A stretch of DNA of 64,000 nt from Candidatus Latescibacterota bacterium (GTDB lineage Bacteria; Latescibacterota; UBA2968; UBA8231), in contig OZ252098.1 of assembly GCA_965248355.1 (NCBI GenBank), positions 1,984,001 to 2,048,000 of the forward strand. Reading direction: 5' to 3'. The notes under the pieces are model-generated. The model was not told where the DNA came from, searched no databases, and was given only the letters and a program-made list of their open reading frames with translations. The position numbers were made by a program, and so were the translations under genes. Below are positions 34,265-48,800 of this stretch, one piece after another (within the stretch, counting starts at the first letter, position 1; the number at the start of each line of letters is the position of its first letter).

Positions 34265-35107
34265 TCAGTCCGCGATCTGCTCGAGGAACTGGTAGCGCTC
34301 GGGATCCCGCAGGCGGCTCAGGGCGCGCTCCTTCAACTGGCGCACGCGTTCCCGCGTGAGCCCCATGGACCCGCCGACCTGCTCCAGGGTCAGGGGCTCC
34401 TCGCCGTCGAGCCCGTAGTAGCAGCGCACGATGTAGCGCTCGCGGTCGTCGAGGGTGGCCAGCACGCCCTGGATCTGGGCCCGGGAGTCCTGCTCGGAGA
34501 CCGAATCGTCGGGCAGGCCGTTGGACTCGTCGGGGATGGTGCTCAGCAGGTTGCGGTCGTCGCCTTCCTCGAAGGTGCGGTCGAGGGAGGCCTCGGGCTT
34601 CGCCTTCAACATCGTCTCCAGCACCTCCGCCTCGGCCACGCCCAGCCTCTCGGCGATCTCGGCCACCGTCACGTCTCGTTGGTCGCCCCCGAGATGGTGG
34701 GTCGCCCTGGAGATGTCGCGCATCATGTTCTGGCGGGTCACGGGCACCCGCACGGTGCGCGTCTGGTCCGTGAGGGTCTGCATGATCGACTGGCGGATCC
34801 ACCAGACGGCGTAGGAGATGAACTTGAATCCGCGCTCGCCGTCGAAGCGGTCGGCCGCCTTCATCAGGCCCATGTTGCCGGCGCTGACCAGCTCGGCCAT
34901 GGTCAGACCCCGGTTCTGGTACTGGCGGGCCACGTCGACGACGAAGCGCAGGTTGGCCTGCACCAGCTCGTCCCGGGCTTCCATGTCCCCCCGGGTGATG
35001 CGCTCGGCCAGCTCGACCTCGCGCTCGCGCGACAGGGGCCGGGAGTCCTCGATGTCGTGGAAGTATCGACGGAGGATCTCGGCGTCCTCGTCGGTGTGGA
35101 TGACCAT
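34265..35107 (-). CDS. RNA polymerase sigma-70 factor, RpoD/SigA family, short form lacking region 1.1
   Basis: ANLRFVV.VARQYQNRG, FKFISYAVWWIRQSI and LTRERVRQL motifs; 280 aa; GAGGAG SD. Confidence 0.92.
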   Translation of the reverse strand: MVIHTDEDAEILRRYFHDIEDSRPLSREREVELAERITRGDMEARDELVQANLRFVVDVARQYQNRGLTMAELVSAGNMGLMKAADRFDGERGFKFISYAVWWIRQSIMQTLTDQTRTVRVPVTRQNMMRDISRATHHLGGDQRDVTVAEIAERLGVAEAEVLETMLKAKPEASLDRTFEEGDDRNLLSTIPDESNGLPDDSVSEQDSRAQIQGVLATLDDRERYIVRCYYGLDGEEPLTLEQVGGSMGLTRERVRQLKERALSRLRDPERYQFLEQIAD

Positions 35108-46544: not shown

Positions 46545-47200
46545 GCGGAATCTCCGTCGCCCCCTCTCTTCTGGCCGCCGACTTCGCGCGCCTCGAGACC
46601 GAGATCGAGCGTGTGGAGGCGGCCGGCGCCGACTTCCTGCACCTGGACATCATGGACGGGCACTTCGTCCCCAACCTCAGCTACGGCATTCCCGTGGTGG
46701 AGGCCGTGCGCCGGTGCACGCGCCTGCGCCTGGACACCCACCTGATGCTCTCCGACCCCGGCGCCTACCTGGAGGCCTTCGCCCGGGCCGGGGCCGACTC
46801 CCTCACCGTGCACGTGGAGATCGACGCCGATCCCGCCCGGCTGCTGGCCGAGATCGGCCGCCTCGGTCTCGGCCGGGGGCTGGCCGTCAACCCCGGCACG
46901 CCCGTGGACCCTCTGCTGCCGCACCTGGAGAGCCTGGACCTGATCCTCGTCATGTCCGTGGAGCCCGGCTTCGGCGGCCAGTCCTTCTTGCCCGGGGTGC
47001 TCGACAAGGTGCGCGCCTTGCGCGGGATCCTGGCCGGGCGCGGCCTGGAGGTGCCCATCGAGATCGACGGCGGCGTCGGTCCCGGCAACGCGGCCGACTG
47101 CCGCCGGGCGGGGGCCTCCTGGCTGGTGGCCGGGTCGTCCGTCTTCGGCGCTGCGGACCCGGCCGAGGCCATCCGCCGGATCCGCGGAGACGAGCGCTGA
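46541..47200 (+). CDS. rpe: Ribulose-phosphate 3-epimerase
   Basis: APSLLAADF, HLDIMDGHFVPN, MSVEPGFGGQ and IDGG motifs. Confidence 0.97.
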   Translation: MSGISVAPSLLAADFARLETEIERVEAAGADFLHLDIMDGHFVPNLSYGIPVVEAVRRCTRLRLDTHLMLSDPGAYLEAFARAGADSLTVHVEIDADPARLLAEIGRLGLGRGLAVNPGTPVDPLLPHLESLDLILVMSVEPGFGGQSFLPGVLDKVRALRGILAGRGLEVPIEIDGGVGPGNAADCRRAGASWLVAGSSVFGAADPAEAIRRIRGDER

Positions 47201-47246
47201 GCGACCCCCCTCTCCCGACCGGGCGACCCCGGCGGGAGCCGGGCCC

Positions 47247-48656
47247 TCAGGGGCGAGAGACCCGTGGGGTCGGCTCGCCCGCGGCAGGTTGCTCCCGCGG
47301 CTCCAACCGCATGGGCATGAGCAGGGCGCTGTGCCGGCCGTCCCGCACGTCGAAGTGGAGGGCCGGGAGGGCGCCGGTCCCGGGGCGGATCCGGATCTCA
47401 TCGCCGGCCTCGGCCAGGGCCGCCACGACCGTCTTCAGCAGATCGTGGTTGACCCCCACACGAAAGCGATCGGCCGCCGCAGGCGCCACCCGGACCGGGC
47501 AGGCCACCGCGTGGGTCCATTCAGGCTCCTCTGCATCCAGGTTCGGCGCGTCTTCCTCGACGCGGGAGAATCCCTGGTCCCGGCTCGTGCGCAGCGTGAG
47601 CCGGCTCTCCGTGCCCGACAGGCGTATCTCCACGAGGGGGTTGTAGATCCATCCCGGGCTCTCGACCCGGTGCCGGGGACTCAGGTACGGCTCGATCCCT
47701 TCCACGCACGCCATCAGCTCTGCGGCCTCCGCGACCACCGAGACGGATCCGGGCGGGTGAAGGCCCACGGCCTCCTCGTAGCGCAAGTAGGGGCCGGGGT
47801 GGATGGGGAACGTCGTGCTGACGCCGTCCCGCGTCTTCAGGGTGGCCTCCTCCTCGTCGATCACCAGTGTGGCTCCCTCCGCCTCCGGGACCGCCTCGGA
47901 GGCCACCGACTCCAGGACCACCGGGGCGGCCAGGGAGGCCAGACCCCGACTCGACCAGCTCAGAAGGCGTGCGCCGTCGCAGGCAACCATGCGGCCCCCC
48001 GCGTCCAGGCAGACGCACCGCAGGATGCGCCGGTGATCCCTGCCCTGAAAGCGGGCCAGGTGACGCAATCCGGTCAGGTCGGCGGCGGTCAGTTCGTAGC
48101 TCTGCGAGAAGCTTGACTCCGGCATGGCGATGATCTCCTTGTGCAGTCGTGATCGGGCTTTCTGCAGACGGCTGCGGACCGTCTCCGTCCTCAGGTCGAG
48201 CAGCAGGGCCGTCTGACGGTAGGAGTAGCCCTTCAGGTAGTGGTGGACGATCACGTCCCGGTGGGCGTCGCCGAGCCGCCCCAGGGCCTCTCGCAGGAGG
48301 CTGCGGATGCGCTTCTCCTCCCGTCCGTGCACCGGGGCCGCCGCCGACTCCACTTCGAACCGCTCGAGCAGGTCGAGTTGTGCGAGCCGGCGCCGATGCC
48401 ACATGCGCACGTGGTTGTCGGCGATCGACCGCAGCCAGGCGGGGAAGCGGCCGGGACTCCGCAACGTGGCCATCCCCTCCCAGGCCGCCAGGAAGACCTC
48501 CTGCAGCAGGTCCTCGGCCGTATCCCGGGAACCGAGCCTCGACGAGATCCGCGCCAGCAGCCAGCCCGCGTGCCCCTCCACCAGACGGCCGAAGACTTCG
48601 GCGTCTCCCGAGGTGGCCGCGGTCACCTGGTCCTTCTCATCCCGGTCCATGATCAC
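47247..48656 (-). CDS. ECF sigma factor fused to a DNA polymerase III beta-clamp-like (domains II+III) C-terminal region
   Basis: Sigma2 (AEDLLQEVFL.AW, F.AWL..IA.N), sigma4 (GYSY...A..L.....TVRSRL..AR..L), then DnaN-like R.IL, VACDGARL, GPYLRY, VGVN..LL and LLMPMRL. Confidence 0.85.
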   Translation of the reverse strand: MIMDRDEKDQVTAATSGDAEVFGRLVEGHAGWLLARISSRLGSRDTAEDLLQEVFLAAWEGMATLRSPGRFPAWLRSIADNHVRMWHRRRLAQLDLLERFEVESAAAPVHGREEKRIRSLLREALGRLGDAHRDVIVHHYLKGYSYRQTALLLDLRTETVRSRLQKARSRLHKEIIAMPESSFSQSYELTAADLTGLRHLARFQGRDHRRILRCVCLDAGGRMVACDGARLLSWSSRGLASLAAPVVLESVASEAVPEAEGATLVIDEEEATLKTRDGVSTTFPIHPGPYLRYEEAVGLHPPGSVSVVAEAAELMACVEGIEPYLSPRHRVESPGWIYNPLVEIRLSGTESRLTLRTSRDQGFSRVEEDAPNLDAEEPEWTHAVACPVRVAPAAADRFRVGVNHDLLKTVVAALAEAGDEIRIRPGTGALPALHFDVRDGRHSALLMPMRLEPREQPAAGEPTPRVSRP

Positions 48657-48800
48657 CCTGACAGTTGCGCGCCGGGCCTGGAGGTATCCCGGCCCCGGCG
48701 GGAATATCTCCGCCGGGCGCCCTCCGTGGCGGAACCGCCCCCCGCAGACTATATTTACTCCTTTTGCGGCAAGGGGTTACGGGCTCGGAGGCCCGCCGGT

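Follow-up and report, generated by a model that had tools for sequence, protein, structure and literature searches.

A sigma factor fused to a module derived from the DnaN sliding clamp in Candidatus Latescibacterota

A gene on the minus strand of a 64,000-nucleotide stretch of a Candidatus Latescibacterota genome (NCBI GenBank assembly GCA_965248355.1, contig OZ252098.1, positions 1,984,001 to 2,048,000; hereafter the window) joins an extracytoplasmic function (ECF) sigma factor to a module homologous to domains II and III of DnaN, the beta sliding clamp. The open reading frame occupies 47247..48656 and encodes 469 amino acids when read from a GTG at 48656. In all homologues, close and distant, the N-terminal methionine lies two codons past this GTG, so that the likely coding sequence is 47247-48650. 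Residue numbers are counted throughout from the GTG at 48656, with the likely protein start two codons later. The features of the locus are as follows, the border between the two clamp-like domains being approximate.

47247..48650, minus strand: coding sequence of the ECF sigma / clamp-derived fusion protein, 467 amino acids from the ATG at 48650, stop codon at 47247-47249, start placed from homologue N-termini.
48387..48584, minus strand: sigma region 2, residues 25-90 (Pfam PF04542, E 2.3e-13).
48357..48380, minus strand: segment Q93-F100 (QLDLLERF), resembling a clamp-binding motif at the start of the sigma2-sigma4 linker (conservation in 53 members).
48144..48299, minus strand: sigma region 4, residues 120-171 (Pfam PF08281, E 5.3e-10).
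47763..48113, minus strand: DnaN domain II-like part, residues about 182-298, with the pocket parts R209, L212 and C226-L231 (TDGxRL-type) (profile and structure alignment).
47304..47762, minus strand: DnaN domain III-like part, residues about 299-451, with N403 and the terminal LLMPMRL (profile and structure alignment).
47250..47303, minus strand: variable C-terminal tail, residues 452-469, predicted to be disordered (predicted local distance difference test score, pLDDT, below 50; length varies in alignments).
48663..48690, minus strand: predicted ECF-type promoter of the fusion gene, with the -35 element GGGATACCT at 48690-48682 and the -10 element CAACT at 48667-48663, 12 nucleotides before the ATG.

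Residues 1-175 make up an entire ECF sigma factor, with both sigma2 and sigma4, as an earlier note made from the letters of this DNA had claimed. Pfam assigns both regions, Sigma70_r2 and Sigma70_r4_2, and the NCBIfam model TIGR02937 (sigma70-ECF) scores 82 bits against a cutoff of 42.9, while every NCBIfam subfamily or equivalog model scores under its own cutoff for this part. All sigma matches within residues 1-175 are to region 2, region 4 and ECF models; regions 1.1 and 3 are absent, and the core falls in the range of ~170-200 amino acids. The nearest solved sequences are those of CnrH and SigE.

The C-terminal portion of about 270 amino acids is homologous to DnaN domains II and III. Taken as a single sequence, the last 293 residues have no match in Pfam or among PDB sequences, and the fusion protein does not reach the Pfam gathering score of DNA_pol3_beta_2 or DNA_pol3_beta_3. 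When the C-terminal part is compared by BLASTP with the DnaN of the same genome, only two short matches appear, with E-values of 0.13 and 0.30. Since the single-sequence searches gave no clear match, profile methods were needed to test the by-eye alignment of the earlier note, in which ~280 residues followed the C-terminal two-thirds of DnaN in order. We assembled an alignment of the C-terminal module only, named A3, from homologues and genomes of the phylum (22 sequences, with identity to the query from 74% down to 29%). Compared by hhalign with an alignment of 30 DnaN sequences from the phylum, A3 gives a probability of 99.4% and an E-value of 1.8e-21 over 217 columns, spanning DnaN residues 153-385 (of 386). 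A hidden Markov model (HMM) of A3 finds 55 PDB sequences at E<=1, and 54 of these are beta clamps (best 8xla, E 5.3e-13); the 55th, at E 0.91, is unrelated. When the 22 members are scanned singly, a weak match to DNA_pol3_beta_3 appears in eight and a weak match to DNA_pol3_beta_2 in seven, the best at E 7.1e-05. The Pfam families that the earlier note had expected for this region are thus silent for the fusion protein alone, and the proposed order of the alignment is borne out by the profiles. All five motif pairs matched by eye are recovered column for column by a profile alignment that includes E. coli DnaN (R152/R209, T172/C226, Y244/Y293, N320/N403 and M362-R365/M447-R450, E. coli residues given before those of the fusion), and the terminal MPMRL lies, as had been stated, at 47304-47318.

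Structural modeling and a Foldseek search, which the earlier note had proposed as checks, return the same fold. In an AlphaFold2 (AF2) model of the full protein (pLDDT 74.7), the Foldseek matches listed are all beta clamps, with E-values of about 1e-10. VIA-align places model residues 182-451 onto E. coli beta residues 122-366 with a Z score of 21-22.8 and a root-mean-square deviation of 2.5-2.7 Å over about 230 residues. The top matches in the ESM Atlas are named putative DNA polymerase III beta and serve as leads only, at 0.84 and hence under the 0.9 level. A deeper AF2 model computed with 53 sequences reaches a pLDDT of 88.5 and a predicted template modelling score of 0.72, which suggests that the sigma and clamp parts have a defined mutual arrangement. 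DnaN domain I has no counterpart in the fusion protein, because sigma4 ends 8-10 residues before the first strand of domain II; the structural match is confined to E. coli beta residues 122-366, and the absence of domain I proposed from the letters is upheld. The domain III-like part also carries residues conserved specifically in this family, namely H329, W336, Y338, R359/D360/G362/F363 (the RDQGF motif) and W380.

The peptide-binding pocket of the clamp is preserved. In E. coli beta, it is described as subsite I (R152, L155, T172, G174, H175, R176, L177, P242, R246, V247, V360 and M362) and subsite II (H175, N320, Y323, V344, M362, P363, M364 and R365) (PMC11139829). At 16 of these 18 positions the residue is unchanged or similar, both in the 22 members of A3 and in a set of 53 members reaching down to about 25% identity, and R246 and V344 are the two that vary. 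Counted over the 53 members, P363 is P in 52, N320 is N in 49, M362 is M in 47, Y323 is Y or F in 46, R152 is R in 42 and R176 is R in 41. The retention of the pocket motifs, asserted earlier from the DGHRL-type loop and the terminal MPMR, therefore extends to nearly all of the published positions.

The features of a ring have fared differently. In the AF2 model, a short loop is all that remains of the second helix of domain II. Across the four helix regions that line the channel, the fusion family averages 4.2 lysines and arginines against 10.1 aspartates and glutamates (41 sequences), whereas the aligned columns of 31 DnaN sequences average 7.6 and 7.2, so that the net charge of the DNA-facing helix regions is about -6 per module in the fusion family and about 0 in DnaN. 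Lacking domain I and with acidic helices along the channel, the module no longer looks like a clamp that encircles DNA. Two further results speak neither for nor against a ring: the dimer-interface residues I272/L273, on the domain III side, are aligned with a posterior of 0.28-0.39, which is too uncertain to count either way, and a homotrimer prediction (three copies of module residues 1-276, from A3) scores 0.04 against a mark of 0.42.

A second conserved element lies outside the module. Directly after sigma region 2, at the start of the sigma2-sigma4 linker, the family carries a segment of the form R-R-R-x-x-Q-phi-x-Phi, which in the fusion protein reads QLDLL at the motif and continues with ERF. 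Q93 is kept in 52 of the 53 members, and the +3 position is hydrophobic (L/F/W/I/Y/M) in 52 of the 53 as well. By the published consensus for clamp-binding motifs, Q-phi-x-[L/M]-[F/L] or Q-phi-x-[L/M]-x-[F/L] (PMC11139829), QLDLL qualifies as one. The most distant members have QPALF, QPPLF or QPxLL at this place, close to the clamp-binding motif of MutL, QPLLI (PMC11139829). The motif is missing at the corresponding position from all 18 other sigma-70-family paralogues of the genome.

The fusion recurs within the phylum. Its module is matched in 67 of 168 Latescibacterota genomes, all in four families (f1, 31 of 75 plus the window's own genome; f2, 2 of 3; f3, 18 of 22; f4, 15 of 31), and in none of the 36 genomes from ten other families. 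At 41 distinct loci the sigma part and the clamp module lie in one open frame, a locus being counted when its BLASTP match to the full query runs from residue <=25 to residue >=420; two loci are cut by contig ends. Contigs from other studies' runs span the sigma-clamp junction at about 99% identity, one of 2756 bases covering 47297-48800 and another covering 47817-48800. An assembly artefact, which the earlier note had named as a circumstance that could undo its proposal, is ruled out by the genome counts, the one-frame loci and these bridging contigs. The genome holds exactly one copy of the fusion and one canonical three-domain dnaN, which adjoins recF at a separate locus. Public databases label members of the family only 'hypothetical protein' or 'RNA polymerase sigma factor'. 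In contigs from two further runs, X8 and X4, 81 other bases stand in place of 47198-47297, the segment of the C-terminal tail and the 3' spacer. An RNA run, X20, was considered as evidence of expression and rejected, as it holds only small chimeric-looking pieces.

Beyond the phylum set, a profile search of 1.84 billion representatives finds 48 proteins at E<1e-30, after which the matches grade into ordinary DnaN. By Pfam, the 76 top matches comprise 44 proteins with Sigma70 domains, about 10 of DnaN type (7 three-domain and 3 partial) and 22 short proteins. Clusters were checked for 10 of the 22, and five (P0148, P0161, P0174, P0177 and P0228) fall in 90% clusters that also hold members of 433-466 amino acids; these five are therefore gene fragments. 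Most of the 22 are read in the same way, and stand-alone two-domain forms were rejected as an account of them, while P0164 (284 amino acids, on contigs up to 46.5 kb) and P0223 (317 amino acids, with a SEC-C tail) may be genuine stand-alone forms. Two-domain clamp-like modules free of a sigma part also occur in a few architectures that may be genuine: P0184 and P0223 end in a SEC-C motif, P0166 begins with a Cys-rich, zinc-ribbon-like N-terminus, and P0164 joins them. No relative turned up when metagenomes were scanned for the context of P0164; a related-locus search with P0146 returned three loci, one of which, contig G038:C281 (NCBI label Latescibacterota), was already in the set. Shortened relatives of 264-278 amino acids (P0020, P0021 and P0023) have the sigma part and only the first 70-86 residues of the module and are perhaps decayed. 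Shortened copies, which may likewise be decayed, lie at G108:C1:5377343-5377603, G131:C1:2563681-2563887 and G039:C471:3973-4425, the last extending to module residue 159.

Upstream of the fusion gene, all four families share a bipartite element, GGATAC(C/T)T followed after 14-15 nucleotides by C(A/G)(A/T)C(T/A). Its spacing and its type of -10 element are those usual for ECF promoters, and a relaxed pattern matches 39 of the 41 upstream regions. Because this promoter is conserved and of the ECF type, the fusion gene is probably autoregulated, and judged from the sequence the fusion sigma factor probably uses its own promoter. In contigs of X6 and X8, from two other studies, a 17-base insertion after 48673 repeats the -35 segment. 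Searched with a strict pattern, the 5.5 Mb genome has two sites, as compared with seven in a first-order simulated genome. One is the promoter of the fusion gene itself, and the other lies upstream of an 857-amino-acid protein with CBM9_1 and DUF5916 domains and a signal-peptide-like N-terminus. This second copy, outside the window at G000:C1:2451453 (+) (L052 about 2453-2480, ahead of the gene at L052:2485-5055), is nearly identical to the first through the -10 element and beyond. We found no literature on DUF5916 in the collection searched. In genus g13, the same promoter precedes a DUF5916 paralogue located 30-60 kb from the sigma gene; it is present in 11 of the 15 genomes with the sigma gene, in none of the four without it and not in the one with a truncated copy, and for some of the negatives the wrong DUF5916 paralogue was possibly chosen. 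Strict patterns in five f4 genomes recover the gene's own promoter and no other site in four and nothing in the fifth. A recurrent second site in f3 was taken as chance and set aside; it sits in the apparent start of a gene on the opposite strand.

The fusion gene stands alone in the window, with rpe convergent on one side and ffh divergent on the other. That no anti-sigma gene is adjacent, as had been noted from the letters, holds for these neighbors and, more widely, for the 58 neighboring open reading frames of 13 loci, among which no anti-sigma Pfam family was found in a scan of frames of at least 120 amino acids. Gene neighborhoods differ from family to family. The extension after sigma4 is about 290 amino acids long, where more than 50 amino acids without an adjacent anti-sigma gene mark a fused extension. 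In one relative (locus L050, G106), other sigma factors that carry long TPR-containing extensions lie to either side of the fusion gene. Within 48780-48800 (+) of the window, the apparent start of ffh is a TTG at 48798, and a GC-rich hairpin with GGAGG, flagged as terminator-like, lies just upstream of it. Elsewhere in the window, a further Sigma70_r2 match at about 34754-34966 (-), inside an open frame of 731 amino acids (G000:C1:2018754-2018966), is followed by sequence resembling the primary or group 2-3 type sigma factors of the genome.

We are inclined, somewhat beyond an even balance, to regard the fusion protein as a one-component ECF sigma factor in which the clamp-derived domain is a peptide receptor or regulator and not a DNA ring. 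The module is read as a monomeric peptide receptor because the ring features are lost while the pocket is kept; selection would have preserved the hydrophobic pocket for clamp-binding motifs and not the function of a ring. We infer the remainder of the scheme, from peptide binding and the latch to the effect on sigma activity, the autoregulation and the signal. The sigma2-linker-sigma4 unit would direct RNA polymerase to promoters of the form GGATACYT - 14-15 nt - C(A/G)(A/T)C, and its targets would be its own promoter and, in f1, that of the secreted CBM9/DUF5916 protein. The receptor module would stand in for an anti-sigma factor and determine how active the sigma part is. As its ligand, the family's own conserved Q-L-x-L motif, located at the head of the sigma2-sigma4 linker, is the most economical choice and would work as a latch inside the molecule; within the one-component reading, the odds that the ligand is this linker motif are roughly even. 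With the latch closed, sigma2 and sigma4 would be kept in a shape that either prevents or permits core binding, until a competing peptide, protein or small molecule fills the pocket. Three roles had been put forward in the earlier note. A one-component sensor gated through the pocket fits best, and a trimeric ring finds no positive support and has the acidic helices against it; a link to replication gains a lead in the clamp-binding-like motif of the sigma linker and stays open.

Several observations count against the receptor and latch as we propose them. The strict clamp-binding consensus is met by only 11 of the 53 members, the fusion protein included, and a loosened form by 21 of the 53. 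AF2 puts the motif where a long helix fades out, at a pLDDT of 56 that then drops below 50, even in the 53-sequence model, and does not model it as an extended peptide in the pocket; its docking there is our inference and not a prediction of the models. The linker motif could instead serve contacts with RNA polymerase or the promoter, and some of the pocket conservation may be structural, the residues lying partly in the core of the fold. The candidate target is also unevenly kept. DUF5916 orthologues in three genomes of the window genome's own genus are without the promoter site, in one of the three, G165, the second site is instead found ahead of an ABC-2 permease, and the promoter motif is found at none of 11 DUF5916 loci in f3 and f4. 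With the DUF5916 target not found in f3 and f4 and the site missing in the three genomes of the same genus, no conserved regulon points to the signal.

Among the alternatives, replication-coupled transcription draws on the same two elements. QLDLL would bind the DNA-loaded beta clamp, the fused pseudo-clamp would compete for it or capture the motifs of replisome or repair proteins, and sigma activity would reflect how replication stands. The protein does contain a canonical clamp-binding motif together with a conserved clamp-type pocket, the genome keeps its single canonical dnaN beside recF, and phages offer precedents: in T4, the clamp gp45 acts in transcription with gp55 and gp33, whose tails bind gp45 (PMC7892883), and MuC of phage Mu has two clamp-binding motifs and uses the host beta clamp for late transcription (PMC12867686). 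We nevertheless consider this reading unlikely, since the sole candidate targets, the secreted CBM9/DUF5916 protein and the ABC-2 permease of one relative, are not related to DNA, and the linker motif is internal and predicted to be helical. A more specific version would make the protein a cellular counterpart of phage clamp-activated transcription, in which the sigma factor, with a genuine clamp-binding motif in its linker, toggles between its fused pseudo-clamp (masked and off) and the DNA-loaded clamp of the replisome (tethered and on), so that envelope genes are transcribed with replication or clamp availability; this we hold to be quite unlikely.

Two other alternatives give the module a simpler role. 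It could be a passive remnant that only stabilizes, dimerizes or localizes the sigma factor, with the pocket kept for folding and regulation purely transcriptional. That no ligand or signal emerged, the small, variable regulon and the truncated copies in some genomes (G108 and G131) would suit a passive domain, which is all the same rather improbable given that surface-exposed pocket positions such as R152, R176, N320 and R365 persist at identities as low as about 25%, that the family-specific linker motif is conserved too and that the full module is retained in 41 loci. The module could also be a true sliding clamp, three two-domain modules forming a six-domain, PCNA-like ring round DNA that tethers the sigma factor. 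A chain with two clamp domains, as in PCNA and gp45, and a fold that closely matches clamp domains speak for such a ring; against these stand the net acidic DNA-facing helices, the reduction of the second helix of domain II to a loop, and the requirement for a clamp loader, for which no dedicated gene lies nearby. A true clamp is accordingly very improbable.

Among ECF sigma factors, ECF41/SigJ (SnoaL-like), ECF42 (TPR) and ECF238/CorE (Cys-rich domain) carry fused C-terminal extensions, and in groups of this type the extension is believed to take the place of the anti-sigma factor and to make contact with the core or the linker (bioRxiv 10.1101/2019.12.11.873521; PMC8999054). The fusion protein shares with the described members of these groups a sigma2-sigma4 core, an extension of more than 50 amino acids directly after it and the lack of a cognate anti-sigma gene nearby, and differs from them in that the extension derives from DnaN domains II and III and that the candidate cis ligand is a clamp-binding-like motif. 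As in the T4 gp45-gp55/gp33 and Mu MuC systems, a protein of promoter specificity or activation would be coupled to a clamp-type pocket through a short hydrophobic motif. In the phages, however, the transcription factor bears the motif and the clamp is a DNA-loaded ring of its own, whereas the fusion has pocket and motif in one polypeptide, lies in a cellular genome and has no support for ring formation. Relative to DnaN itself, the fold of domains II and III (Z 21-23) and 16 of the 18 pocket positions are shared, including the TDGxRL loop and the C-terminal MPMR; unlike DnaN, the fusion is without domain I, has acidic channel helices, lies outside the dnaN-recF locus, is fused to a sigma factor and falls under the Pfam thresholds.

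A full-text literature search found no paper on an ECF sigma factor with a sliding clamp, DNA_pol3_beta or DnaN-like part. The main text of the ECF reclassification preprint (bioRxiv 10.1101/2019.12.11.873521) and that of the review of non-canonical ECF sigma factors (PMC8999054) do not name the clamp, DnaN or polymerase III, and one supplementary file of the version in Nucleic Acids Research has no match for clamp, DNA_pol3 or the family's one named accession; other supplementary tables may exist. The statement that no characterized protein is known to have this architecture agrees with the literature searched, and the combination of an ECF sigma factor with DnaN domains II and III looks like an apparently undescribed one.

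ECF sigma factors with fused extensions are one-component signal transducers, and few kinds of extension are understood. The extension described here is a remnant of a replication protein that has kept its peptide pocket, has apparently lost the features that form a ring, and is paired in the same chain with a clamp-binding-like motif. A latch formed by pocket and motif would gate a sigma factor in a new manner and, as far as the literature searched shows, would be the first case in which the beta-clamp pocket is re-used as a receptor for regulation. Peptides and small molecules that bind this pocket are known, and it serves as a drug target. Should the motif bind the real clamp instead, the coupling of transcription to replication seen to date in phages T4 and Mu would also reach the sigma factors of cells.

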